A stretch of 64,000 nucleotides of DNA from Candidatus Kryptoniota bacterium (lineage in GTDB: Bacteria; Bacteroidota; Ignavibacteria; Kryptoniales; JAKASW01): contig DATCTN010000010.1 of NCBI GenBank assembly GCA_036567965.1, positions 22,510 through 86,509 of the forward strand, in the 5' to 3' direction. Positions 15,287-60,125 of the stretch are shown in pieces. Position 1 is the stretch's first letter; each line of letters opens with the position of its first letter. The notes beneath the pieces were generated by a model, which saw only the letters and a program-made list of their open reading frames with translations, searched no databases and had not been told where the DNA came from. The translations under genes and the position numbers were made by a program.

Positions 15287-15307
15287 ATATCTTACTACGG
15301 AGATTGA

Positions 15308-16303
15308 ATGGACCAATCTGAGCGCGAGGAAATATTCCGGAAGCTCGTTGATGGAAACAAAAAGTTCGTCCTTACCACTCACGTAAATCCGGACGCCGAT
15401 GGTCTCGGGTCGGAGCTCGCGCTGAACAGATTCCTTCTGAAACTCGGCAAGGAATCCATAATACTCAATCACAGCGAAACGCCCTCAAATCATGTCTTTC
15501 TCGATCATGATAACCAGATTCTGAAATTTAATCCCGACAGGGATGGACAAAGAATTCTCGGTGCCGATGTCTTGATTGCTCTCGACATGAACAATTCAAA
15601 CAGGCTGAGGAGTTTGGAAGAGTTTTTCCTTGAGAGTAAGGCGAAGAAAATCATTATTGACCATCATCTTGACGCCCAGGATTTTGTCGATTATCAGTTG
15701 ATTGATCTAGACTCGCCTGCGACTGCGGAGATAGTTTACAAGCTGATGATGGCTTACGACAGCACTTTAATCGATCAGAGCATAGCTGAAGGAATCTATG
15801 CTGGAATCATGACAGACACAGGTTCGTTCAGGTTCCCGCGGACGGACGCGGAGATCCACAGGATAACATCGCATCTCCTAGAGCTGGGTGTCGACCCGAC
15901 ATACGTTTACAACAATTTGTTCGAGCAGAACTCGGCGGGCCGACAGAAGCTGCTGGGTGATGCCCTGGCTGGGCTGAAACTCGATTACGACGGGCGTGTT
16001 TCGTACTTCAAGGTCACCATCGAGGACCTGAAACGGAATCACGTGATGCCCGATGAGACGGACCAGTTTGTGAATCATGCCGGCGCGATCGCAGGTGTGG
16101 TAGTAACAATATTTTTCATGGAACTTCCGGACGGCGTCAAAATTAGTTTCAGGTCGAAGGGCGACGTTCCCGTAAACGAACTCGCCAAATTCTACGGCGG
16201 CGGCGGCCATAAGAACGCGGCGGGAGCACGAATACACAACGCAGGACTTGCAGAGACTATTTCAACCGTCCTCAAAGACGTTTCGAAGATCTTACCGCGT
16301 TGA
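15308..16303 (+). CDS. nrnA: DHH-family phosphoesterase (NrnA-type oligoribonuclease/pAp phosphatase)
   Basis: 331 aa. Motifs H.NPDADG, DHH (IIIDHHLD), GIMTDTG.FRF and GGGH (DHHA1). Confidence 0.85.
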   Translation: MDQSEREEIFRKLVDGNKKFVLTTHVNPDADGLGSELALNRFLLKLGKESIILNHSETPSNHVFLDHDNQILKFNPDRDGQRILGADVLIALDMNNSNRLRSLEEFFLESKAKKIIIDHHLDAQDFVDYQLIDLDSPATAEIVYKLMMAYDSTLIDQSIAEGIYAGIMTDTGSFRFPRTDAEIHRITSHLLELGVDPTYVYNNLFEQNSAGRQKLLGDALAGLKLDYDGRVSYFKVTIEDLKRNHVMPDETDQFVNHAGAIAGVVVTIFFMELPDGVKISFRSKGDVPVNELAKFYGGGGHKNAAGARIHNAGLAETISTVLKDVSKILPR

Positions 16304-16325
16304 CTATCCTTTCAAAGGAGGAAGA

Positions 16326-17834
16326 ATGAAGGTAGAATTCAAAGAGAAGAACTCCAACGAAGTAAACGGAGACGTCCTGATCTTAGTATTGACTAAGGAA
16401 GACGTCGTTCCTGAAAAGAGGAAAAAGGGCAAGCGAAGAATTTCTTCCCTCCTGGGAAAACACGAAGACATCCTCGAGAGCGCCATCAGCAGAAGCGAAT
16501 TTGAAGGCGACAAGGGACAGCAACTCACAATTCACACGACCGGGAATCGGCGTGCCATGATACTCTGCGGTTCGGGAGAGAGGTCGCAACTCTCGAACGA
16601 AAGCCTGAGACGTGCAGCTGCCGCAGGGCTGAAAGCCGGCCAGGCACTGAAAGCGAAATCGATCGTCATCTCCGCGCTCGAACCGACAGTTGAACAGTGT
16701 GGCGACTACGAGACCGTTCATTCTCTTCTTGAGGGGGCGAAACTTGCGGCGTATAAATTCGACAAGTATCTGACGGAGGATAAGAAATCTTCTAAAGTGG
16801 AACAGATTTTGGTAGCGATGGAGAATGTTAAGCCGGCAATAGGCGCGAAGGCGGCGAGAGACGTGCAGCTGATTTGTGACGCCGTGTTCCTTGCGCGGGA
16901 TCTTTCAAACGCGCCGGCGAGCGAGATCTACCCTGAAACACTTGCGCGCGCTGCCGCTGCAATGGGACGCGCATTCCGGGTAAGAGTAACGGTACTCGAC
17001 GAAAAGAAAATTCGATCCCTAAGGATGGGTGGATTGCTGGCAGTCAACTCGGGAAGCACAAAGCCACCTCGCTTTATCATCATGGAATATTATGGAAACA
17101 GAAAGAGCAGGGACATTTACGCGATAATCGGGAAGGGAATAACATTCGACAGCGGCGGTATATCACTTAAGCCCGCGGCCGGGATGGGAGAAATGAAGAT
17201 GGACATGTCGGGCGCAGCCGCAGTGATCGGGACGATTCAGGCAGTCGCCTCACTTAAGCTTCCTGTTAATGTTGTCGCACTAGCTCCTGCAACAGAGAAC
17301 CTTCCAGGCGGATCGGCATATAAGCCGGGGGACGTGGTCACAACTATGTCGGGGAAGACAATAGAGGTGGATAACACCGACGCGGAAGGACGGATCATTC
17401 TTTCTGACGCGCTGTTCTACGCGCAGAAATACAAGCCGAAGGCTATCATCGACCTGGCGACTTTGACCGGCGCAGTCGTCGTGGCGCTCGGTCATCATGC
17501 GACGGGAATGTTCGGCACCGCCGATGAGGTGATGTTGCAGTTAAAAGACGCCGGGGAAAAAACTTACGAACGTGTTTGGCAACTTCCGATTTTTGAGGAG
17601 TATGAAAAGCAAATCAAGAGTGACATAGCGGATGTGAAGAACACGGGCGGCCGATGGGGCGGGGCGATCACGGCGGCGCTGTTTCTGAAGAAATTCGTCG
17701 GCGATTACCCGTGGGTCCATCTCGATATCGCCGGCACCGCGATGCTTGAAGACGCGTCGGACTATTCGCCGCGCGGCGGCTCGGGAGTAGGCGTCAGACT
17801 ACTAACTCAGTTTTTCAAACAGATATCTGCCTGA
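16326..17834 (+). CDS. pepA: Leucyl aminopeptidase (peptidase M17)
   Basis: ATG 16326 with AAGGAGG directly upstream; the ORF-track start at 16248 overlaps nrnA. Motifs VGKGITFDSGG and NTDAEGR(I)ILSDAL. Confidence 0.92.
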   Translation: MKVEFKEKNSNEVNGDVLILVLTKEDVVPEKRKKGKRRISSLLGKHEDILESAISRSEFEGDKGQQLTIHTTGNRRAMILCGSGERSQLSNESLRRAAAAGLKAGQALKAKSIVISALEPTVEQCGDYETVHSLLEGAKLAAYKFDKYLTEDKKSSKVEQILVAMENVKPAIGAKAARDVQLICDAVFLARDLSNAPASEIYPETLARAAAAMGRAFRVRVTVLDEKKIRSLRMGGLLAVNSGSTKPPRFIIMEYYGNRKSRDIYAIIGKGITFDSGGISLKPAAGMGEMKMDMSGAAAVIGTIQAVASLKLPVNVVALAPATENLPGGSAYKPGDVVTTMSGKTIEVDNTDAEGRIILSDALFYAQKYKPKAIIDLATLTGAVVVALGHHATGMFGTADEVMLQLKDAGEKTYERVWQLPIFEEYEKQIKSDIADVKNTGGRWGGAITAALFLKKFVGDYPWVHLDIAGTAMLEDASDYSPRGGSGVGVRLLTQFFKQISA

Positions 17835-17925
17835 AGAAATTTCCACGGTCCGGCTTTCAGGCACCGGTAGATGAGGACGGCCTGGAACTTATCGCAGGAT
17901 AGGCCAGAAGGATTCAGACTGACAA

Positions 17926-18837
17926 TTACCTTTCTGTCGCGTATTCGTCTATCACCTTCAGGTTGTGCCCGGGTCGCGCATCCACCGTTTCAAGTTCGGC
18001 TTTGTTGCCTTTAATCGTAATGAAAGTAATGCAGGGGAAGGATTTCCCTGATGGAGTAAACGCAGTCTTCTCGCTAATCGGTGTAGGATCCTTGTAGCTC
18101 GCGCCACCTGTACCGTTTATGACGTGCACAATTCCGTTCTTCTTATCGACGCCGCCATCCGGTCTTAAAGGCTTTGTCCTGAGATAGATGTGCGCGTGGC
18201 CATTGAATATGAACTTGCATCCATGCTTGTACAAACTTTCCACCCAAGACATGCACGTGGATTCGTAACTTTCTTTGTATGATAAATCGCCGTAAGTCGG
18301 GTTATGCCAGACGCCGATGATCCAATCGGTACCTGGGATGGTAGAAAGGAGGCTGTCGAGCCAGCGCTGCATGACATTCTTAGGTGTCGCATAACCGTCA
18401 CAGAAGATCACGTCGACGTTAGAAACATGAACGGAATAGAAATGTGTTGATCCATTGGCTGAGTTTGTCGGCAATATCCCTGCGGTGTATTTATCGAAGT
18501 TCGTCTCACCGTCTTTGCTCTTGAATTCGTGGTTGCTTGTGCACATGAAGAATTTCCCTTTGACGAAAATGCTGTCCACTCCGGGATAATGGAGGCTCCG
18601 CTGCCAGGCCGCATCGGTTCCGTCATGCGTAAAATCTCCGCAGTGCACCTGGAAATCCCAATCAGTGATCTTATATAGAAGGATATGTGCGATGTCCGAG
18701 CAGGCATTTTCCGCATTTTCTCTTGAGTCGCCCCACAGTGCAATCTTGACGCGTTCCTGTGCAGAAAGCGGAACAATGCTCGTGAAAAATAAAAGGAACG
18801 CAGCAAGGGTGGACAAAATTCGGTTTCTATCTTTCAT
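17926..18837 (-). CDS. Secreted calcineurin-like metallophosphoesterase
   Basis: 303 aa. Signal peptide (LAAFLLFFTSIVPLSAQ). Motifs GDSRE, GDFTHDG, SNHEF and GHAH. Confidence 0.8.
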   Translation of the reverse strand: MKDRNRILSTLAAFLLFFTSIVPLSAQERVKIALWGDSRENAENACSDIAHILLYKITDWDFQVHCGDFTHDGTDAAWQRSLHYPGVDSIFVKGKFFMCTSNHEFKSKDGETNFDKYTAGILPTNSANGSTHFYSVHVSNVDVIFCDGYATPKNVMQRWLDSLLSTIPGTDWIIGVWHNPTYGDLSYKESYESTCMSWVESLYKHGCKFIFNGHAHIYLRTKPLRPDGGVDKKNGIVHVINGTGGASYKDPTPISEKTAFTPSGKSFPCITFITIKGNKAELETVDARPGHNLKVIDEYATER

Positions 18838-18922
18838 TTCAACTCCATTGTAGTTAAGCGAAATCCCGGTGCAGGGCGCTCTTGCCCCGCACCGGGGAAT
18901 ATGCTTCCGCCTCAGAAGGTAC

Positions 18923-20419
18923 TTACTTTAACAATAACATTTTATGAACAACAGAGAATCGCCCTGCTTCCATCCGCACAAAGTACACTCCGGACGGGAA
19001 ATTATCTGCGCTCCATGTCTGGGAGTAGCTCCCAGCCGTTCGAAATCCGTTGAAGAGTTCCGATATCTGCCTCCCGAGTATATCATAGACCGCAATTCGT
19101 ACATGACTTGCAGTTGGCAAATCATACACGATAGTGGTCATAGGATTGAAGGGATTTGGATAGTTCTGGTGAAGCGCAAAGCTGGAAGGCGTGGATGCGG
19201 TCGACGATTCCACGGCACTGAGAGTATATGCTCCGAGCGCACCGATGTTTGGATCGCCGGGCAGCTGGCCGGTTCCATTGCTGAAGTATGGATTAGACCA
19301 GTGATTTGAGCCGGATGGAGCTGGAGGAGTAAACCCCGCCCCGAGCGCAGGCGAGCCTCCTGTCAGCCTGTAATCGTTCGAGCCGTCAAGTGCAAGCCAA
19401 TCGTTGGTGAAGAATGGCTGGTAGCTTTCAAACAGAACGCTTGCCTGGATATCAACGATGTCATGAGGCGCTTGCCTGGCAACTCCGTCGGACGCAAAGT
19501 ATCTCGACGCACCCTTTAAGCTGTCGACCGAATAGAAATAAAGGTTGTTGTCATACACAGTTCTTAAAGTGTCGGCCGCCACAGTGATCTCAAGTTCTTC
19601 GTACATGTCGCCCATGATGTTGTTGTAGATCTGAGCGCGGGCACTTGCATCTACAAGAACAGCGTAACCCAGTTCGTCGACGCGGCGCCACCCCCCCGCG
19701 ACGATGGTGTTGTTGTGGATACACATGTTGGTCAAACGGGCAAGAGTCGGGTCGGCGTTCACCTTGATTCCATTTCCACCCGATGCCCAAATGACATTAT
19801 ATGCGATCTCGCCTATCGTGCCGGCTTTCACATTGATGTTGTCTCCGTCCGGCGCGCCGCACCACTTTATCGTGTTTCGGAGAACGCTCGCGTTTCCTCC
19901 ATGCAGACCGATGCAATCGTCGACGGTCCCAACGACCAGGTTGTCTGTAAAGACCGTCGTTGTCGTGTTTGCGAAATCAGAGTAAATGTCGAACGTTCGA
20001 TATGCGTGACCGGACACGTCATTGCCCCCGGCCCAATAAATGTCGGAGAATTTGACACTCACATATTGACAGGAATCTCCGACAATGCCGCCCCACATTC
20101 CCGGGCGCTTAGCAGAATCGACATCTGCTGTTGTAATCAAGATACGATTCGATGCTGTGCCTTCACAAATGAAAGTGCCGAGAATATGTATCCAGCATGC
20201 GGCGCCGGTTGAAAGATCGTTCTTCATCAAAAGTGTATCACCGGCGCTTATCGTGAGCGTGTCGCCGGCATTAATGGTTAGACTGTCTTTTACAACATAA
20301 GTGTGGTTGGCAACAGTTCTTCCCTCGACACTGCCTGTAAGCGTATCCGGCAGAGTTTGCGAAAGTGTTACTCCAGCTACTGAGAAGAGAAGCAACATGG
20401 TTGTTAGGAACTTCGACAT
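18923..20419 (-). CDS. Secreted right-handed beta-helix repeat protein with a T9SS C-terminal sorting domain
   Basis: 498 aa. Signal peptide. Repeated NN.I/GG.GI beta-helix-type turns. The C-terminal ~80 aa (LHQNYPNPFNPMTTIVYDLP...VYDILGRQI...SGVYFVRMEAG) match the Por/T9SS tail pattern. Confidence 0.8.
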   Translation of the reverse strand: MSKFLTTMLLLFSVAGVTLSQTLPDTLTGSVEGRTVANHTYVVKDSLTINAGDTLTISAGDTLLMKNDLSTGAACWIHILGTFICEGTASNRILITTADVDSAKRPGMWGGIVGDSCQYVSVKFSDIYWAGGNDVSGHAYRTFDIYSDFANTTTTVFTDNLVVGTVDDCIGLHGGNASVLRNTIKWCGAPDGDNINVKAGTIGEIAYNVIWASGGNGIKVNADPTLARLTNMCIHNNTIVAGGWRRVDELGYAVLVDASARAQIYNNIMGDMYEELEITVAADTLRTVYDNNLYFYSVDSLKGASRYFASDGVARQAPHDIVDIQASVLFESYQPFFTNDWLALDGSNDYRLTGGSPALGAGFTPPAPSGSNHWSNPYFSNGTGQLPGDPNIGALGAYTLSAVESSTASTPSSFALHQNYPNPFNPMTTIVYDLPTASHVRIAVYDILGRQISELFNGFRTAGSYSQTWSADNFPSGVYFVRMEAGRFSVVHKMLLLK

Positions 20420-49936: not shown

Positions 49937-49959
49937 GTAAATAACAAAAGGAAGTGAAA

Positions 49960-50334
49960 ATGAATCGAAGATTAGCGGTGGCAATTGAAGAATCGAGCTC
50001 CGAAGAGCGGGTAGCTCAGCACTTCGGACATTGCGCCAAGTTCAATATCTGTGAGCTGGACTCAGAGAACAAAATTGTGAAGCAGGAATCCTATTTCAAT
50101 CCTTTGAACGGCGAGCATGGCGGTGCGTGCCAGCTCCCTGCTTATGTCAAGCAATTCAACGTCGACACGATCATCGCAGGGGGAATGGGGCGCAAAGCTG
50201 TCATGGGCTTTCAGCAAGCAGGCATCGAAGTCATTACGGCGCCCGGACTTCTCTTCAGTGAGGCGTTGAAACTATTCACCGAAGGCAAGTTGAGCGGCTA
50301 CGAGGAATGCGCAGGCCATGAGCATCATTCCTAA
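49960..50334 (+). CDS. NifB/NifX-family (dinitrogenase FeMo-cofactor-binding-like) small protein
   Basis: MNRRLAVAIEE...VAQHFGHCAKFNICELD...VDTIIAGGMGRKA...AGIEV is the typical PF02579-like pattern (from memory). ATG 49960 is preferred over GTG 49954. Confidence 0.8.
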   Translation: MNRRLAVAIEESSSEERVAQHFGHCAKFNICELDSENKIVKQESYFNPLNGEHGGACQLPAYVKQFNVDTIIAGGMGRKAVMGFQQAGIEVITAPGLLFSEALKLFTEGKLSGYEECAGHEHHS

Positions 50335-51030: not shown

Positions 51031-51285
51031 ATGTTTGGATATTATAACGACTTCGGTTACGGAAGAGGAATGGGTCATGGCTTTGGACACAGACACTGCC
51101 ATGGCGACGTCTTTGGTCCTAACTACGGAATGGGAAGAGGCTTTGGTCGATTTGGAGGAGCTTTCTTTGGCGAAAGCGATGTCGATGTGCTGAAGCGCTA
51201 TCGAGACCGTCTGGAACTTCATAAGAAATACATCGAAGCTGAACTCAAATACGTGGACGAGAGAATAACGTCGTTCGAAAAGTGA
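51031..51285 (+). CDS. DUF5320-like Gly/aromatic-rich protein with a C-terminal coiled coil
   Basis: 84 aa. GYGRGMGHGFGHRHCHG...GMGRGFGRFGG is followed by LKRYRDRLELHKKYIEAELKYVDERI. Strong SD (AAAGGAG). Family name is from memory. Confidence 0.65.
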   Translation: MFGYYNDFGYGRGMGHGFGHRHCHGDVFGPNYGMGRGFGRFGGAFFGESDVDVLKRYRDRLELHKKYIEAELKYVDERITSFEK

Positions 51286-51347: not shown

Positions 51348-51536
51348 ATGAGCAAAGGTCATGGCGGTGGCATGGGCGCAGGCGGATATTGTGTCTGCCT
51401 GAAGTGCGGGTACAAAAAACCTCACGAGCGAGGAGCGCCGTGTATGGAAGAGAGATGCCCTAACTGCGGGAAAGCCCTCATGCGTGAGGGATCTGAACAC
51501 TACAATCTGGCATTAGCAAAGAAAGAGAAGAAGTAG
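51348..51536 (+). CDS. Small 4-Cys zinc-ribbon-like protein
   Basis: 62 aa. G-rich N-terminus, then C.C.KCG...(14)...CPNCG. SD is GAGGAG. It is recalled as co-occurring with DUF5320/NifX-like genes. Confidence 0.6.
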
Positions 51537-53317: not shown

Positions 53318-53670
53318 ATGAACATTCTTATACCGATTAATGATGCTCCTGTCGAACGGAAAAAGCTTACAACGCCTTCAGGCTGGCGATGGCGATTCAA
53401 AAAGATCATTCAACTGTACAGGTCAACGTATTTTTAATGGCGGATGCAGTCAGTTGTGGAATTTCGAATCAAAACACAGCGCAGGGTTATTACAACATCG
53501 AAAGGATGATCAAGGCTGTTGTTCAAAAGGGCGGGAAGATCAAAGCCTGCGGCACATGCGCTGATGCCAGAGGGGTCAAGAGCCTCCCACTCATCGAGGG
53601 AATCGAGGCAAGCAACATGGCAGAACTTGCCATGTGGACGGTCGAGGCAGACACGATCTTAACTTTTTGA
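53318..53670 (+). pseudogene. DsrE-family sulfur-relay protein interrupted by an apparent 1-nt deletion (frameshift)
   Basis: Frame 1 from ATG 53318 reads MNILIPINDAP, then nonsense until a stop at about 53437. The +2 frame reads ...TEKAYNAFRLAMAIQKDHSTVQVNVFLMADAV...YYNIERMIKAVVQKGGKIKACGTCADARGV... to 53670. Adding one nt near 53351-53356 (gtcgaacg to gtcGgaacg) restores a 117-aa DsrE-like protein. The SD is AAGGAG. Confidence 0.7.
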
Positions 53671-53849: not shown

Positions 53850-54281
53850 ATGACGAAAGACTATGCATCCGGGACAAGTATGCTCCGGTTAGCTCTTGCA
53901 TGCCGAAGGTTTCAAAAGAGACTTGCCAGCGGGACCGGCTTGTCCACAAATGAAATCATCTGCTTGTTAATCCTGCACATGCAGGAGTTGAAATCCGTAA
54001 GTGAATTAAGCTCCATTGTGGATCTCTCCTGCACCTCCACCTCCAAGATTCTTTCCAAGCTCCAGAAAAAGAGGTGCATTGAAATTGCCTTGCATTCTTC
54101 CGACAGGCGCAAGGAGCAAGTCGTACTCACCGACTTCGGACGCGGAATGTCAGAGAGGTTGTTGTCCAGTTCGAAAGACCTTGCAATGGATGTGCTTGCC
54201 AGTCTGCCTGAGAACATGAAGATGGAATTCGCGAATTGGATACAATGGCATTCGGTCGACAACAGCAGCGAATCAACTTAA
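53850..54281 (+). CDS. MarR-family winged-helix transcriptional regulator
   Basis: 143 aa. LSTNEIICLLILH...SVSELSSIVDLSCTSTSKILSKLQKKRCIE...DRRKEQVVLTDFG is the MarR wHTH pattern. Confidence 0.75.
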   Translation: MTKDYASGTSMLRLALACRRFQKRLASGTGLSTNEIICLLILHMQELKSVSELSSIVDLSCTSTSKILSKLQKKRCIEIALHSSDRRKEQVVLTDFGRGMSERLLSSSKDLAMDVLASLPENMKMEFANWIQWHSVDNSSEST

Positions 54282-54308: not shown

Positions 54309-54566
54309 ATGTCTACAACTATCGATCTTAACACGATGAAAGCCGCGAAAGTAGCGGACGCACGTGCCATGGCGTGTCCAGGTCCGCTGCTGGAAGCGAA
54401 GAAGAGTATCGGTACCGTCAAAGTGGGCGAAGTACTAGAAATATGGTCCGGAGATCCGAATACGAAGAAAGATATGCCAGCTTGGTGCCAGAAAGTCGGC
54501 CATGAATTTCTCGGAGTCATCCCAGCCGACGGTTACGACCGACTCTTCATTCGCAGGAAAAAATAA
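54309..54566 (+). CDS. tusA: TusA-family sulfurtransferase / sulfur carrier
   Basis: 85 aa. DARAMACPGPLLEAKK contains the CPxP active-site motif. The context G.VLEIWSGDP.....M.AWC...GHEF is typical. Confidence 0.88.
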   Translation: MSTTIDLNTMKAAKVADARAMACPGPLLEAKKSIGTVKVGEVLEIWSGDPNTKKDMPAWCQKVGHEFLGVIPADGYDRLFIRRKK

Positions 54567-54616: not shown

Positions 54617-55060
54617 ATGGCTAATAGTCTACCAGGAAATAATTGCAAGATCCTATTGCTCGCAACTCTGTCCGGCGGCTATCGTGGTGCAGACTCGGCA
54701 GGGCAATCTCACATTGATTATTCGCCGAACACATTCATACTTCCAGTCCGGACTTCCGCTATTTTTCCGCCGCAGTTCTACTTGAATTCGTTGGAGCATG
54801 GCTTCGATGCGATCATTGTGATGTACAGCGGGACCGACAGCCCTTACAAAGGCGAGTCGGAGCGGACGGCGGAGATTATTAATATGACTTACGCGATAAT
54901 GAAGGAAAAAGGGATCGATACTCGCAGGTTGCGGCTGGCCGCAATTTGCACCGTCTGTGTGAAACCCTTTCTCAATGAGATTCAAAAGATGAATGCACTC
55001 CTTGATGAGATTGGACCAGTTGCACGTCCGATTCAAGTGGTGAGTCTGCAGATAAAATAA
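54617..55060 (+). CDS. MvhD/FlpD-like protein lacking the canonical cluster-binding cysteines
   Basis: 147 aa. It is colinear with the remembered MvhD pattern (KIV.F.CNWCSYAGADLAG...YP.N.RII.V.CSGR....F.L.A...GADGV.V.GCH.GDCHY..G......R......L.E.GI...R.R). Here it reads KILLLATLSGGYRGADSAG...YSPNTFILPVRTSAI...GFDAIIVMYSGTDSPYKGE...GIDTRRLRL. Confidence 0.7.
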   Translation: MANSLPGNNCKILLLATLSGGYRGADSAGQSHIDYSPNTFILPVRTSAIFPPQFYLNSLEHGFDAIIVMYSGTDSPYKGESERTAEIINMTYAIMKEKGIDTRRLRLAAICTVCVKPFLNEIQKMNALLDEIGPVARPIQVVSLQIK

Positions 55061-55063
55061 ACG

Positions 55064-56401
55064 GTGAATTTTCAAATGGCAGCAGAGAAATTTCAAGTCG
55101 ATAGTCTCATAGTCGGAGGCGGAATCGCAGGTATGCAGTCGGCACTCGATCTCGCAGACCATGGCTATAAAGTTGCACTGGTGGAAAAGAATCCGAGTGT
55201 CGGCGGAAAAATGATCGGCTTAAGCAAAGTCTTTCCGACTCTCGACTGCTGCAGCTGCATTACTACTCCCAAGATGTCGGCAGTTGCTCACCATGACAAC
55301 ATTGAACTCTTGACATACTGCGAGGTAGATTCAGTGTTTCGCAACCACGGTGCCTTCGAAGTGCGGGTAACGAAAAAACCGCGCTACGTGAAGGAGAACG
55401 ATTGCACAGGCTGCAGAGCCTGTGAGCTGGTTTGTCCGATCGAATTGCCCGACGAAGAGAACGAGTTCGGCCGCATTGGCCGGCGCGTCATTTATGTCCC
55501 ATTCGCAACTGCCGTTCCGCAAAAAGCGGTCATCGATATTGAGCATTGTGTGTTTTGCGGGAAGTGCATTCCTGTCTGCGCGCCGAACGTCATCGATTTT
55601 CACCAAGCACCTGAAGAGATAGAAATTGAAGCGAAGACAATCATACTCGCCACGGGCTATGAGGTAACTCCGCGAAGTGCCAAAAAGGAATACGGCTCGG
55701 GAAAACTCAGAAACGTAATCGATGGACTCATGATGGAACGCCTCCTAGCTCCGACGGGACCTTACGGACATGTGCTGCGTCCCTCTGATGGTAAGCAGCC
55801 TTCCTCAATCGCCTACGTGCAATGTGCCGGGTCACGGGATCAGACACTAGGCGTGCCGTATTGCTCACGCGTCTGCTGTATGTACGCAATCAAGCAAGCA
55901 ATGCTCCTTTCCGGGACGCTTCCGATGGCGGACATCACGATCTATTACATGGATATCCGTACGTTCGGAAAGGGATACGAGCAATTCTATCAGAGCGCGA
56001 AGGCTATGGGAATTGAATTTGTGAAGGGAAAGGTCGCCAGGATCTCCGAAGACTCTGACCAGAATCCCGTCGTCCGAGTAGAGATGATCGATGACAATTC
56101 GCGCGTGATCGAACGAAAGCACGACCTTGTCGTTCTTTCAGTTGGCATGCTGCCGGGTTGGAATACGGAAAAAGACTTCGGCGTCGCCACGGCCGATGAC
56201 GGTTTCGTTGAAATCCCCGATTGCAATATCGCGCCGACTGTTACCGCACAGCCCGGCATTTTCGCTGCTGGAACAGCGACTGGCCCGATGGATATCGTTG
56301 ACAGCATCATGACAGCTGGTGCCGCAGCGGCAGAAGCCGCCGGATATATCGAGGCCAACTTCTCGGAAAAGGTAATCTCGGGGACTTTTGCCCATGTCTG
56401 A
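55064..56401 (+). CDS. HdrA-like FAD/FeS oxidoreductase, short form (QmoA-like) with an inserted 2x[4Fe-4S] ferredoxin motif
   Basis: 445 aa (GTG 55064 or ATG 55076). FAD fold is VGGGIAGMQSALDLA. Cys motifs are CTGCRACELVCP and CVFCGKCIPVCAP. HdrA signature is CAGSRD...YCSRVCCMYA. Confidence 0.85.
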   Translation: MNFQMAAEKFQVDSLIVGGGIAGMQSALDLADHGYKVALVEKNPSVGGKMIGLSKVFPTLDCCSCITTPKMSAVAHHDNIELLTYCEVDSVFRNHGAFEVRVTKKPRYVKENDCTGCRACELVCPIELPDEENEFGRIGRRVIYVPFATAVPQKAVIDIEHCVFCGKCIPVCAPNVIDFHQAPEEIEIEAKTIILATGYEVTPRSAKKEYGSGKLRNVIDGLMMERLLAPTGPYGHVLRPSDGKQPSSIAYVQCAGSRDQTLGVPYCSRVCCMYAIKQAMLLSGTLPMADITIYYMDIRTFGKGYEQFYQSAKAMGIEFVKGKVARISEDSDQNPVVRVEMIDDNSRVIERKHDLVVLSVGMLPGWNTEKDFGVATADDGFVEIPDCNIAPTVTAQPGIFAAGTATGPMDIVDSIMTAGAAAAEAAGYIEANFSEKVISGTFAHV

Positions 56402-58220
56402 CAATCCTGAGAAGAGAGAAATGGAGAGACAGGAGCCGAAGATTGGCGTTTACATTTGTGATTGCGGTGGAAACATCAGCGATACGGTGAACTGTCAGAG
56501 AGTTGCAGAAGCTCTGGCAAAACTTCCGAACGTTGCTGTGTCACGGCGCTGCCAGTTCATGTGCTCCGATGCCGGTCAGAAGCTTGTCACAGACGACATT
56601 AGCGAGAACGGTGTCAATCGTGTCGTCGTGGGAGCGTGCTCCATTTTCCTTCACGAGCAGACTTTTCGAAGAACCGTCCAGCGTGCGGGGTTGAATCCCT
56701 ACTTCTATTATCACATCGGGTTGCGTGAACAGGACAGTTGGGTGCACCACGCTTGTCCGCCTGAAGCAACGGAGAAAGCCGTGAGGATGATGTCTGCGGG
56801 AGTTGCGAAAGCACGCAAGCTGCGACCACTCGAGTCGATTCATCTAGAAGCAGAAAAGCATGTCCTGGTTATTGGCGGCGGCGTAGCGGGACTGCGTGCC
56901 GCGCTATCGATTGCCCGCACCGAATTGAGAGTGACGCTCATCGAGAAAAGCAACTCTCTCGGCGGACACGTCATGCAGTGGAATCGGCTTTTCCCGACAG
57001 ATGAAGATGCCCGCAAAGTTGTCAACCGCCTCATCGCCGATGTGATGGCAGAGAACAAAATCGAAGTGATGACAGAAACGGAAGTGATATCCTCGAAAGG
57101 ATATGTCGGAAATTTCGATGTAAGAATTCGAAAACAATCCACCGAGACCGACATAAGAATTGGCGCAATCGTCATCGCGACTGGTTTCGAACCGTACGAT
57201 CCATTTCAGGGCGAGCTCGGCTATGGAACATATCCTGAGGTCATTACCCTTCCTCAATTGGAAAGTCTTCTCTCAGATCTGGCCGAACACGAGCTAAGAT
57301 GGAACAGCCATCCTGTACGCAGCGTCGCGATGATCCATTGCGTAGGGAGCCGACAGGTCGAAGGTGTGCACAAGCCCCAGCTCGACGGCAAAGTGAATGA
57401 CTATTGCTCTCGGGTGTGCTGCACCGCAACCCTGGCAGCTGCGAATGAAATCCGTGAGAGATTCCCCGATGTAAATGTGTACGATGTCTATCAGGACATC
57501 CGCGCTTACGGCCGCGGCCATGAAGATTATTATCTAAGAGCCTCGAAGAACCGTGTCACGTTCATTCGCTACTTTGCCGAGGAAGCGCCCGAGGTTCTCC
57601 ATGCTGAAGAAGGCGACCAATTTCCCCTCCTGGTGAAAGTGAAAGATCATCTGACATGGGGAGAAGAGATCGAACTGCCGGTGGACTTGGTTGTCCTTTC
57701 CGTTGGTATGATGCCGAGTCCCATTCAGGATTTGATGAGCATGTTCAAGGTTGCTCCGGGGAGCGATCGGTTTCTTCTCGAAGTGCATCCCAAACTAAGG
57801 CCCGTCGAGACGGCGGTTCCGGGCATTGTATTGGCAGGTACGGCGCAGGCACCCATGAACGTTCTGGAGAGTTGCGCAGCTGCAGAGGCTGCGGCTTCAA
57901 AAGTCAGCATTCTCCTGTGTCGCGGCGAAGTTGAACTTGAGCCTTACGTAGCGCAAGTGGATCCGGATCTTTGCAAGGGTAGCGGAGAGTGCGTTCGATT
58001 ATGTCCACAGGAAGGCGCCATCCACCTCGAGACGATCAACGTTGATGGCAAATCAACTCAGCGAGCTGTAGTGACAGAAGCGAACTGCAACGGTTGTGGA
58101 GTATGTGTGAGTGCTTGTCCTAATAGGGCAATTGACGTTCAGGGCTGGCAGCTCGACGAGTATGAGGCTATGGTACAGGCTATCGTTGCCGACATGCCTG
58201 CATTGGAGGACATTCCATGA
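56394..58220 (+). CDS. HdrA-like FAD/FeS oxidoreductase, long form (QmoB/HdrA-like)
   Basis: HdrA N-terminal domain is IGVYICDCGGNIS...FMCSDAGQ...VVVGACS..LHEQTFRR...GLNPY......LREQDSWVH. FAD fold is IGGGVAGLRAAL. CVGSRQ...YCSRVCC is present. C-terminal motifs are CKGSGECVRLCP and CNGCGVCVSACP. The start ATG 56394 overlaps the upstream stop (ATGTCTGA). Confidence 0.88.
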   Translation: MSDNPEKREMERQEPKIGVYICDCGGNISDTVNCQRVAEALAKLPNVAVSRRCQFMCSDAGQKLVTDDISENGVNRVVVGACSIFLHEQTFRRTVQRAGLNPYFYYHIGLREQDSWVHHACPPEATEKAVRMMSAGVAKARKLRPLESIHLEAEKHVLVIGGGVAGLRAALSIARTELRVTLIEKSNSLGGHVMQWNRLFPTDEDARKVVNRLIADVMAENKIEVMTETEVISSKGYVGNFDVRIRKQSTETDIRIGAIVIATGFEPYDPFQGELGYGTYPEVITLPQLESLLSDLAEHELRWNSHPVRSVAMIHCVGSRQVEGVHKPQLDGKVNDYCSRVCCTATLAAANEIRERFPDVNVYDVYQDIRAYGRGHEDYYLRASKNRVTFIRYFAEEAPEVLHAEEGDQFPLLVKVKDHLTWGEEIELPVDLVVLSVGMMPSPIQDLMSMFKVAPGSDRFLLEVHPKLRPVETAVPGIVLAGTAQAPMNVLESCAAAEAAASKVSILLCRGEVELEPYVAQVDPDLCKGSGECVRLCPQEGAIHLETINVDGKSTQRAVVTEANCNGCGVCVSACPNRAIDVQGWQLDEYEAMVQAIVADMPALEDIP

Positions 58221-58531
58221 CTGTGGACAAGAAGCAGGAAGCGCGAGAGCGAACGCGGATGCTCCTGGAGCTCCGGAAGGAATACTCCGTCACGGTGGAG
58301 AATGCGCAGGAATTGTTAAAGAAACAGCAAGCGGCGCGCAAGCTTCTCGAGAAAGCTATGCTCGACGGCCCTCACTCGATACCACACTTAGCTCAACAGA
58401 CCGGCATTCCCGCCGATGAGGTCTTATGGCATGTTGCTTCGATGAAGAAATATGGAATCGTTGTGGAAGTGGGGACTGACGAATCGGGGGATTACTTCGT
58501 CTACTCGTTAAGCAAGGAGGGGAAATCGTGA
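58217..58531 (+). CDS. Small protein with an N-terminal helical segment and a C-terminal winged-helix-like fold, inserted between the HdrA-like and QmoC-like genes
   Basis: 104 aa. ATGA overlap upstream and GTGA overlap downstream, with SD GGAGGA. The C-terminal segment SIPHLAQQTGIPADEVLWHVASMKKYGIVVEVG...YFVYSL resembles a wHTH. No family recognised. Confidence 0.65.
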   Translation: MTVDKKQEARERTRMLLELRKEYSVTVENAQELLKKQQAARKLLEKAMLDGPHSIPHLAQQTGIPADEVLWHVASMKKYGIVVEVGTDESGDYFVYSLSKEGKS

Positions 58532-59697
58532 GTTATCGAGCGGATCCGAGCTTCATTTCCCAGCTTCGAAAATATGGAGCGGTGAATATCGAGTCATGCT
58601 TTAACTGCGGCAACTGTACCGCTGTGTGTCCTCTCTCTTCGGACGAAGACAACTTCCCGCGTCGGATGATCCGTTATGGACAACTTGGAATGAAAGATAA
58701 ACTTCTCGGAAGCAAGGAGCTTTGGCTGTGCTATTCCTGCGGTGAATGCACGGCGACATGTCCGCGGCAGGCTGACCCGGGAGAATTCATGGCAGCCGCA
58801 AGAAGATATGCAATTGCCCGGTACGACAGGGTCCGACTTGCAAGCTTGATGTACACGTCATCCATATTTAACCTTCTATTTCTGCTCTTCCTGGCAGTGG
58901 TGCTGGGCACTTTCATTTACTCTTTCCATGGTTCAATGCCCACCCAATCGCTCCGCCTATTCGACTTCATTCCTTCCGAAGTGATCCATGATGCCGGAAT
59001 CATCGCGGGTCTCGTCGTTATTTTAATCGCTATGTTGGGGTCCTTCAGCATGATCTCCAACATCAGAAGAAACATTGCTATTCCTGAGGATATTCGCTTC
59101 GATCACAAGTCGGCAATGACTGAAACAATCGCCGAAGTCTTCACCCAGCGGAGATATCGGCGCGATTGCAAGACTTCTTTGAAAACTCAGCCGTGGTATT
59201 TCCAGAAATGGTTTCTTCACGCGTCGATGCTCTGGGGATTCATGGGATTGTTCCTTGCGACTGCCCTTGACTTTTTCCTTGCCTTGACTGGAACGAAGCC
59301 GACAGGAACATGGGTGCCTATCTGGTATCCTGTCCGCCTGCTTGGAACGCTCGCAGGACTCATGCTCATGTATGGCACTACGGGTGCGATTGTTAAACGG
59401 TTGCTCAAGGGAGATGATTCATATCGACATTCTACCTCTACCGATTGGTCTTTCCTTGTGATCTTATGGCTATCGGGTCTGACGGGGTTTGTCTTGGAAG
59501 TTGCAGTTTATCTTCCGGAGCCGCACGCTTGGAGTTACTGGATGCTTCTCGCCCATTTGATCATTGTGGGAGAGCTGCTCATACTTCTGCCTTTCACAAA
59601 GTTTGCACATGTCATTTATAGAACAATGGCTCTTTACGTTCACGCTCTCAAGCCCCTACCGGAAACGGAACCTGCCGTGACTGAAGTAAAGGAATGA
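58528..59697 (+). CDS. QmoC-like membrane subunit: HdrC-type 2x[4Fe-4S] domain fused to an HdrE/NarI-type multi-TM (putative di-haem b) domain
   Basis: 389 aa. Motifs CFNCGNCTAVCP and CYSCGECTATCP are followed by about 6 hydrophobic helices with conserved His (e.g. FLHASMLWG, LLAHLIIVGE, FTKFAHVIYR). Confidence 0.82.
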   Translation: MSYRADPSFISQLRKYGAVNIESCFNCGNCTAVCPLSSDEDNFPRRMIRYGQLGMKDKLLGSKELWLCYSCGECTATCPRQADPGEFMAAARRYAIARYDRVRLASLMYTSSIFNLLFLLFLAVVLGTFIYSFHGSMPTQSLRLFDFIPSEVIHDAGIIAGLVVILIAMLGSFSMISNIRRNIAIPEDIRFDHKSAMTETIAEVFTQRRYRRDCKTSLKTQPWYFQKWFLHASMLWGFMGLFLATALDFFLALTGTKPTGTWVPIWYPVRLLGTLAGLMLMYGTTGAIVKRLLKGDDSYRHSTSTDWSFLVILWLSGLTGFVLEVAVYLPEPHAWSYWMLLAHLIIVGELLILLPFTKFAHVIYRTMALYVHALKPLPETEPAVTEVKE

Positions 59698-59762: not shown

Positions 59763-60125
59763 ATGGCTGAGAAAATGATGGTCGTATGCAACGGTTCAGC
59801 GCCAAGCAATATCATGCCGGCGTTGATTTTCGCTTCATCCGGCATTGCACTCGATTATGAGGTGCACATGTTTTTTTGTCCGGCTGGTGCACAAATGCTC
59901 GTAAAAGGTGAATTGGAGAAACTCGGGACACCTAAGGGGATGCCTAACCCAGTGAATCTGTTCAACACGATAATGGACCAGAAGGGCAAAGTCGTGTTCT
60001 GCGAGCTTGCAATTGAAAACAAAGGGATCAAGCCCGAGGACCTACGCGACAAGCGTATCGTCATTGAGAAAGTACCACCGTTCCTCATGGGTGCGAGCGG
60101 AGCGGGAATGACCTTCGTGTTCTAA
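59763..60125 (+). CDS. DsrE/DsrF/DrsH-like (DsrE2-type) small protein
   Basis: 120 aa. MMVVCNGSAPSNIMPALIFASSGIALDYEVHMFFCPAGAQML...VFCELA resembles the PF13686-type pattern (from memory). Strong SD. Confidence 0.7.
   Translation: MAEKMMVVCNGSAPSNIMPALIFASSGIALDYEVHMFFCPAGAQMLVKGELEKLGTPKGMPNPVNLFNTIMDQKGKVVFCELAIENKGIKPEDLRDKRIVIEKVPPFLMGASGAGMTFVF

Follow-up and report, generated by a model that had tools for sequence, protein, structure and literature searches.

An MvhD/FlpD-fold protein without canonical cluster cysteines and with an invariant CxxC, encoded in a predicted type II Qmo cassette of a Candidatus Kryptoniota bacterium

How could an MvhD-type subunit serve HdrA-type flavoproteins once the cysteines that bind its iron-sulfur cluster are gone? 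This question is raised by an open reading frame (ORF) in a stretch of 64,000 nucleotides from a Candidatus Kryptoniota bacterium (contig DATCTN010000010.1, positions 22,510 to 86,509), here called the window, to whose first letter all coordinates refer unless a related locus is named. MvhD/VhuD is the [2Fe-2S] subunit of F420-non-reducing hydrogenase-heterodisulfide reductase complexes. The ORF is the following:

54617..55060, plus strand: MvhD/FlpD-fold protein without canonical cluster cysteines (Pfam FlpD, AlphaFold2, Foldseek)

An earlier note on this DNA had described it as a stand-alone MvhD/FlpD-like protein that had lost all canonical cysteines and would be a structural or docking subunit. 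Our analysis bears out the family and the loss, and identifies one CxxC pair that is invariant among all close relatives and that may, as we tentatively propose, work where the cluster used to be. It also adds three points that the earlier note did not contain, namely a TusA gene as the upstream neighbor, a widespread type II Qmo cassette and independent cysteine-poor domains of the HdrL type.

The ORF starts with ATG, has an intact reading frame and encodes 147 amino acids (aa). Residues 12-133 match PF02662 (FlpD) over the full model (positions 1-123/123) with an expect value (E) of 2.4e-15 and a score of 57.1 bits, the curated cutoff being 22.3 bits, and the only solved relatives found by sequence are MvhD chains: 5odc_D (E 4e-6), 9sw2_D, 8rvu_F and 7bkb_F. 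The AlphaFold2 model, for which 89 homologs were used as input, has a predicted local distance difference test score (pLDDT) of 87.4 and a predicted template modeling (TM) score of 0.82, and features the MvhD alpha/beta fold, in which four parallel strands alternate with four helices (strand 12-17, helix 21-30, strand 39-44 and helix 52-60 in the N-terminal half; strand 65-70, helix 80-97, strand 105-109 and helix 115-132 in the C-terminal half). Foldseek aligned the model to 5odc_D with TM scores of 0.79/0.84 and a root-mean-square deviation (rmsd) of 1.6 Å; for 5odc_D, 8rvu_F and 7bkb_F together E is 1e-9 to 1e-10, TM 0.78-0.90 and rmsd 1.6-1.7 Å. Only MvhD chains reached significance, the runners-up being lumazine synthases with TM ~0.4. 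The gene encodes a separate subunit directly upstream of two HdrA-like genes (55064-56401 and 56388-58220), as the earlier note had stated in setting it apart from the QmoB fusion, and the HdrA-like pair follows it in every related locus that is long enough. Profile, fold and the association with HdrA identify the protein as a member of the MvhD/FlpD family.

Pairwise and multiple alignments retain none of the five canonical MvhD cysteines in the window protein (0/5) and agree, residue by residue, with the replacements noted before at the CNWC, VMCSGR and GCHxGDCHY sites. These sites and the CxxC pair are located as follows:

54665..54676, plus strand: T17-L-S-G20 replacing CNWC in the loop after strand 1 (alignments)
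54752..54754, plus strand: T46 at the strand-2 cysteine position, VMCSGR having become V44-R-T46-S-A-I (alignments)
54824..54847, plus strand: Y70-S-G-T-D-S75-P-Y77 replacing GCHxGDCHY after strand 3 (alignments)
54947..54958, plus strand: C111-T-V-C114 in the turn between strand 4 (105-109) and helix 4 (115-132) (81/81 loci, model)

Residue counts for the closest relatives, the window clade, refer to 81 loci. The strand-1 and canonical strand-3 cysteines are gone throughout this clade: T17 is present in 78/81 loci and G20 in 81/81, Y70, S71, G72 and D74 are each found in all 81, and position 75, the old strand-3 cysteine, is Ser in 79 and Cys in two. Position 46 is Cys in 34, Ser in 35 and Thr in 12 loci, that is, a third cysteine (C46) is retained by 42% of the members.

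The cysteines left in the window protein are C10, C111 and C114. Both C111 and C114 are Cys in 81/81 window-clade loci, CxxC is present in all of the best 120 close homologs, and the corresponding [IV]CSVC is found in all 116 listed proteins of a large sister family, which spans bacteria and archaea. Both columns are also invariant in three multiple alignments. The only cysteines invariant across the window clade, the intermediate members and the sister family are those of this CxxC after strand 4, where canonical MvhD carries I-S-A-x-E-G. The earlier note had mentioned C10, C121 and C124 as possible substitute ligands; the CxxC is real, with the numbering corrected by ten to C111/C114, and C10 was ruled out, being unconserved (Pro in 57/81 relatives). 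His32 is nearly invariant in the CxxC branch; it was also ruled out as a ligand, as it follows helix 1 and by the model would be located at the sheet's opposite (bottom) edge.

In the secondary structure of the model, the former ligand positions and the CxxC are all on the same C-terminal edge of the parallel sheet, a topology that would bring them close together in space. The most conserved segments of the window clade are the loops after strands 1, 3 and 4 (entropy 0.23-0.31 bits); of the four loops, that after strand 2 varies most (1.18 bits), as much as the helices, and the two pocket-loop blocks have the lowest pLDDT in the core (83 and 86). Since position 46 drifts between Cys, Ser and Thr and position 75 is fixed as Ser, whereas the CxxC is invariant, the pair appears to be selected independently of the other former ligands.

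A database search with the MvhD-like protein yielded 2030 relatives, the best 120 of which have 134-169 aa and 68-100% identity; the one identical sequence comes from a "Candidatus Kryptonia" metagenome-assembled genome (MAG). Across phyla, identity within the window clade is 60-88%. A scan of one genome per species, done with an alignment narrowed to the close clade (the broad alignment lacked a conserved stretch), identified the protein in 148 genomes. The best 80 of these are mostly Anaerolineae/Chloroflexota MAGs, with Bacteroidota, Ignavibacteriales, NC10 and one deltaproteobacterial MAG also represented and no isolates among them.

The branch structure was derived from a representative search, alignments and a rough neighbor-joining tree. 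The CxxC branch consists of three nested groups, apart from canonical MvhD, HdrA-MvhD fusions and HdrL-type domains. Its intermediates (P0127, P0130, P0134 and P0139) vary in cysteine content. The sister family (7425 matches, including Vulcanisaeta, Caldivirga and Peptococcaceae) has five invariant cysteines, located in PC(S/T)S after strand 2, DGxxC(P/A)YxxDC after strand 3 and ICSVC after strand 4, and zero cysteines after strand 1. Judging from these alignments, the ancestor of the CxxC branch had already exchanged the canonical ligands for a new set of five cysteines, and three of these were later lost in the window clade. The earlier note had suggested a survey of Cys-less homologs as a possible clade: the window clade does separate in the tree and has a fixed TusA/Hdr-Qmo cassette, but it keeps the CxxC.

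Canonical cysteines were independently lost in MvhD-like domains fused to HdrL/HdrA (P0259, P0234, P0210 and P0219), which read IRVPSSSR, GESEEKSSPY and EFITVML. The Cys-to-Ser change at the GDCHY position is common to the HdrL-type (GltD-HdrA-MvhD) domains and the window protein, SSPY/SPF there being convergent with TDSPY here; unlike the window protein, these domains are fused to HdrA, have EFITVML instead of CxxC after strand 4 and form a separate tree branch. Other fused HdrA-MvhD proteins (P0261, P0262, P0233 and P0268, type I QmoB not being among them) differ from the window protein in keeping at least four canonical cysteines. An apparent TusA-MvhD fusion (P0230) was not used as evidence; its linker is of low complexity and reads like a frameshifted translation.

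The genes around the MvhD-like gene, both those of the seven-gene cassette (TusA to DsrE2-like) and the two upstream of it, are listed here:

53318..53670, plus strand: DsrE-like sulfurtransferase with a 1-nt frameshift, the open ORF covering only 53389-53670, 93 aa (Pfam DsrE, E 2e-16, model positions 32-116)
53850..54281, plus strand: MarR-type regulator directly upstream of the cassette (MarR_2/MarR matches below the Pfam cutoffs)
54309..54566, plus strand: TusA sulfur carrier with active-site Cys23 (ACPGP) and a second Cys60 (Pfam TusA, E 4e-19)
55064..56401, plus strand: QmoA-like HdrA paralog with a flavin adenine dinucleotide (FAD) domain, an inserted 2x[4Fe-4S] ferredoxin domain and a CxGSRD..YCSxxCC motif (NCBIfam HdrA2, 477 bits, model positions 138-559)
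56388..58220, plus strand: QmoB-like HdrA paralog with an N-terminal cluster domain, an FAD domain and a C-terminal 2x[4Fe-4S] ferredoxin domain (NCBIfam HdrA2, 519 bits)
58217..58531, plus strand: p104, a 104-aa cysteine-free winged-helix-like protein (HTH_20, E 0.007; YgaV, 3cuo, E 0.055)
58528..59697, plus strand: QmoC-like protein, an HdrC-type 2x[4Fe-4S] domain fused to a membrane domain (NCBIfam qmoC NF038018, 221 bits; Pfam Fer4_8)
59763..60125, plus strand: DsrE2/DsrE3-like sulfurtransferase with conserved C9, C39 and C80 (Pfam DrsE_2/DsrE)

TusA is encoded directly upstream of the MvhD-like gene in 79/81 window-clade loci and in 79/82 metagenome loci of the sister family, and this pairing spans Chloroflexota, the Bacteroidota/Ignavibacteria/Kryptonia group, NC10, Bacillota and Thermoproteales archaea. 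The order TusA, MvhD-like, QmoA-like, QmoB-like, p104, QmoC-like, DsrE2-like is kept in every locus that is long enough, p104 being found in 70/81 loci and the DsrE2/DsrE3-like protein being conserved in 69. The cassette also surrounds the sister protein of Vulcanisaeta (L085), those of three metagenomic contigs, one intermediate member and the protein of a Peptococcaceae MAG. Neither a hydrogenase (MvhAG/VhuAG) nor a formate dehydrogenase is encoded within 10 kb on either side or in the related loci inspected; aprBA and sat are likewise absent within 10 kb of the MvhD-like gene, and no apr, sat, dsr or hydrogenase genes adjoin the cassette in the related loci inspected.

Concerning the individual genes, the public gene call of the QmoA-like protein begins at 55076. 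The QmoB-like protein matches HdrA chains of the PDB with E 1e-125, contains no FlpD domain according to Pfam and ends after its ferredoxin domain. The start and stop codons of p104 overlap the QmoB-like and QmoC-like genes, and archaeal (97 aa) and Bacillota (81 aa) cassettes carry versions of this protein; its winged-helix similarity, of the ArsR/YgaV kind, is weak, and it looks more like a subunit than a regulator. The QmoC-like protein stays below the cutoff of NF038018 (300 bits); its eight cluster cysteines are conserved. The frameshift in the DsrE-like gene separates the N-terminal MNILIPINDAP from TEKAYNAFRLAMAIQ, which is read in a different frame. The ortholog of this gene in a Bacteroidota MAG (L005) is intact with 115 aa, and the break in the window copy either is genuine, making it a pseudogene, or stems from an error of long-read assembly. 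The MarR-type regulator is kept only in L005, the closest relative; the regulator preceding tusA in other clades is of the ArsR type in L087 (3705-4073) and L089 (8463-8837) and a helix-turn-helix-cupin protein in Chloroflexota loci, e.g. L003 (8449-9084). Since the ArsR family is known to include persulfide sensors, sulfane sulfur may control the cassette.

Synteny and orthology with the Vulcanisaeta locus L085 place the window locus in the type II Qmo cassette, the QmoAB(C) part of which is discussed in Neukirchen et al. 2023 (PMC10504309) and DiSCo 2021 (PMC8477390), both of which refer to Chernyh et al. 2020; "type II Qmo" complexes have been stated to be of unknown function (PMC10504309). 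By these sequence criteria, the MvhD-like protein is the small subunit of a conserved redox complex linked to the membrane, which comprises the QmoA-like/QmoB-like pair of HdrA-type flavoproteins, the quinone-linked QmoC-like subunit and p104, with TusA and DsrE carriers co-encoded. The cassettes of Vulcanisaeta, Caldivirga, Peptococcaceae and many MAGs share with it the (DsrE)-TusA-MvhD-HdrA-HdrA-small protein-QmoC-like order and the CxxC, but their MvhD-like proteins have the five invariant cysteines (PCSS, DGTDCPYxxDC, ICSVC) where the window clade has the CxxC with or without C46, their QmoA-like proteins read DCASC instead of DCCSC, and their TusA mostly lacks the second cysteine. Canonical type I QmoABC also combines an HdrA-like flavoprotein, an MvhD module and a QmoC-type membrane subunit (PMC3333476), as do HdrA2-type fusions for the flavoprotein and its module. 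In canonical QmoB, however, MvhD is the C-terminal domain and the genes are linked to aprBA, unlike the separate upstream gene found here. Among PDB chains and NCBIfam models, the latter having no matching QmoA/B model, the best matches of the QmoA-like and QmoB-like proteins are HdrA2/HdrA.

Some cassettes differ in composition. In two variants (L086 and L089) the first HdrA-like protein has 905 aa and an extra pyridine-nucleotide oxidoreductase domain, and L086 (Peptococcaceae) encodes HdrC and HdrB (CCG-domain) as separate proteins in place of QmoC-like. On an archaeal-type contig (L090), a sister-type cassette is immediately followed, at 15291-20036, by Psr/Phs/Ttr-like genes for a molybdopterin oxidoreductase exported by twin-arginine translocation, a ferredoxin subunit with four clusters, a cytochrome b and a chaperone. 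A NifX/NifB-type gene (PF02579, Nitro_FeMo-Co) at window positions 49954-50334 recurs within a few kb of the cassette in the unrelated genomes of L003, L004, L030, L037 and L070; in L004 it adjoins two MinD/ParA-ferredoxin ATPase genes, a radical S-adenosylmethionine gene and a VKOR gene. Between the window genes for peptide deformylase and arginine decarboxylase are a short Gly/His-rich ORF of 84 aa (51031-51285) and an ORF of 62 aa with four cysteines in a zinc-ribbon-like CxxC...CxxC arrangement (51348-51536); public gene calls exist for both and Pfam gives zero matches.

The partner proteins also differ in cysteines between the two clades. Identity between the window and Vulcanisaeta is 54% for QmoA-like, 44-50% for QmoB-like, 33% for QmoC-like, 50% for TusA and 36% for MvhD-like, i.e., compared with QmoA-like, QmoB-like and TusA (44-54%) the MvhD-like subunit has diverged most. 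An unbiased scan for alignment columns in which the cysteine frequencies of the window clade and the sister clade are at least 0.5 apart returned few columns. The largest cysteine difference is C63 of the QmoA-like protein (90% of the window clade vs 0% of the sister clade), C86 of the same protein being Cys in 58% vs 4% and its position 425 in 0% vs 50%; C60 of TusA is present in 100% vs 17%, and C23 and C60 occur together in 79/79 window-clade loci. C63 belongs to the following motif:

55244..55258, plus strand: D61-C-C-S-C65 of the QmoA-like protein with extra cysteine C63 (alignment to HdrA D193-C194-S-I-C197)

The stretch FPTLD-C62-C63-S-C65 aligns with HdrA P190-T-N-D-C194-S-I-C197. DCCSC is found in 76/81 window-clade loci, the extra cysteine being missing from 5/81, and in 2/~82 sister loci, the others having DCASC, DCSSC or DCAAC. 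In Vhu-Hdr, the [2Fe-2S] cluster of VhuD has been described as the main link to the HdrA flavin in one state, and a role as thiol/selenol relay has been suggested for the Cys/Sec197 pair of this very HdrA motif (PMC13518236). The alignments thus indicate that cysteines were lost from the MvhD-like protein while TusA and the presumed docking partner, the latter in its flavin-proximal motif, gained them.

One further cysteine is missing from the QmoB-like protein, where the first [4Fe-4S] motif of the C-terminal ferredoxin domain (residues 529-540, window 57972-58007) reads CKGSGECVRLCP, the second cysteine being Ser. Related loci have C (50), S (15), T (8) or A (3) here, and in all loci that have Cys46 in the MvhD-like protein and from which the motif was recovered (29/34) the QmoB-like cysteine is kept. 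A tie between this loss and the loss in the MvhD-like protein was considered and rejected, as Vulcanisaeta, with its five-cysteine MvhD, also has Ser.

What, then, does the CxxC do? We favor, as a tentative answer that falls somewhat short of an even chance, that the CxxC dithiol is a redox and sulfur-transfer port which replaced the [2Fe-2S] wire of MvhD. Thiol chemistry is favored because TusA is a fixed neighbor in bacteria and archaea, because the partners gained cysteines and because the CxxC is separately selected; moreover, the strand-CxxC-helix geometry is typical of redox-active dithiols. By analogy with the Mvh/Vhu-Hdr structures, the MvhD-like protein would most likely dock at the MvhD site of the HdrA-like heterodimer, beside the flavin entry. 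It would probably carry no cluster of any kind and hence no [2Fe-2S] electron wire, and its working part would be C111-x-x-C114, where helix 4 begins on the face that once held the cluster. TusA is its probable partner: the dithiol would accept a disulfide or persulfide from a carrier, TusA or one of the DsrE type, and then exchange two electrons with the flavoprotein, possibly via the DCCSC of QmoA-like, with the extra Cys63 helping. In this way the complex could couple protein-bound sulfane sulfur to quinone via QmoC-like, in either direction (reduction to sulfide or oxidation), and ferredoxin would probably also be linked, via the inserted ferredoxin domain of QmoA-like. The more specific proposal that a cysteine relay, from TusA C23/C60 over C111/C114 of the MvhD-like protein and C62/C63/C65 of QmoA-like to FAD, replaces the Fe-S entry wire of a potentially electron-bifurcating HdrA-type flavoprotein, with sulfane sulfur or a dithiol as the two-electron substrate, we regard as rather unlikely in its full form.

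Two known systems help to place this proposal. MvhD/VhuD (5ODC, 7BKB, 8RVU and 9SW2) resembles the window protein in Pfam family, in fold (TM 0.79-0.90, rmsd 1.6-1.7 Å) and in being a small stand-alone subunit beside HdrA-type flavoproteins; it differs in having five conserved cysteines instead of none and ISAxEG instead of CxxC after strand 4, and in having a hydrogenase or formate dehydrogenase as electron source where the window protein has its fixed TusA neighbor. With thioredoxin-type CxxC proteins and the thioredoxin reductase relay the protein would share, by the model, a CxxC at the N-terminus of a helix that follows a strand, and HdrA is a thioredoxin-reductase-like flavoprotein. The fold here, however, is the flavodoxin-like one of MvhD and no thioredoxin fold was matched, so the likeness in mechanism is an analogy only.

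Several points weigh against a thiol port. The placement of C111/C114 comes from the topology of a single-chain model rather than from a model of the complex, and C-T-V-C with its hydrophobic flanks looks, by sequence, more buried than thioredoxin-type motifs. The partner cysteine gains may represent just one or two evolutionary events, which would make the locus counts non-independent, and the members among the best 80 genomes all come from uncultured organisms. The same CxxC in the five-cysteine sister family is most simply explained as two Fe-S ligands, and a metal site may exist here too. This leads to the first competing explanation, which we consider somewhat unlikely, namely that a metal centre persists: an Fe-S cluster or a mononuclear metal bound by C111/C114 and by non-canonical or shared ligands (C46 where present, Ser75 or Asp74, a second protein copy, or C63 of QmoA-like), which would make the protein a re-sited inter-subunit electron wire. 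The five shifted cysteines of the sister family indicate that the ligand set moved toward strand 4 before the window clade arose; C46 provides a third cysteine in part of the clade; Ser75 replaced Cys and was then fixed without drift; the partner gained its cysteine in a motif that in HdrA sits at a subunit interface; and the low pLDDT of the pocket loops is as expected for loops that need a cofactor. Yet just two cysteines are invariant, the toggling of position 46 among close relatives in which the other loops are unchanged is unlike the behavior of an essential ligand, and the few clade loci without the extra QmoA-like cysteine also speak against a shared site. Ser or Thr ligation of Fe-S clusters is, besides, rare in nature.

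The conserved loops could alternatively form a docking interface with the HdrA-like subunits, and the protein as a whole could be a cofactor-less structural or docking module that positions the HdrA-like pair or recruits a partner, with a structural role for the CxxC. This is close to what the earlier note had concluded, and we judge it unlikely. The disappearance of the canonical [2Fe-2S] ligand set, on which that conclusion was founded, stands, and the cysteine-poor HdrL-type fusions, which have no CxxC, indicate that a cluster-free MvhD fold can persist. But the invariance of the CxxC in the 81 clade loci, the 120 close homologs and the 116 sister proteins, on the same sheet edge as the conserved loops, is hard to ascribe to packing alone, the cross-phylum identity is unusually tight for an adaptor, and the obligatory TusA pairing and the partner cysteine gains point to chemistry beyond docking. 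That the gene is a decaying relic losing its function in this genome is very improbable. A frameshift in the neighboring DsrE-like gene and a QmoB-like ferredoxin motif one cysteine short would fit decay; the ORF itself is intact, and the same sequence type is found in at least 148 species-level genomes and ~2000 database proteins with 60-100% identity and the same seven-gene order, conservation by which this explanation is effectively refuted. The thiol port thus remains our preferred reading, and its mechanism is in all parts deduced from sequence.

The cassette and the fold were already known, while a literature search found no description of a cysteine-less or CxxC-type MvhD, of its cysteine pattern or of a TusA-MvhD link; a subunit with the CxxC alone, strictly paired with TusA, and the gain of cysteines in its partners therefore appear to be undescribed in the literature searched. 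About 2000 database proteins of the window clade are named "hydrogenase iron-sulfur subunit" or "F420-non-reducing hydrogenase subunit", an annotation that is misleading because the cluster ligands are lost and a hydrogenase partner is lacking. The series that leads from canonical [2Fe-2S] MvhD via five shifted cysteines to a lone CxxC lends itself to studies of cofactor-site remodeling. For type II Qmo, the pairing of TusA with the MvhD-like protein and the shift of cysteines to the partners provide a testable hypothesis of where sulfur trafficking meets electron transfer, in hosts (Anaerolineae, Ignavibacteria and Kryptonia) that are usually not counted among sulfur cyclers. If the cysteine relay were true, it would be a cluster-free, thiol-driven input to a Qmo/Hdr-type machine with a quinone- and ferredoxin-linked flavin, and would represent a previously unrecognized sulfur-respiration or persulfide-detoxification system that is widespread among uncultured Anaerolineae and the Bacteroidota/Ignavibacteria/Kryptonia group.

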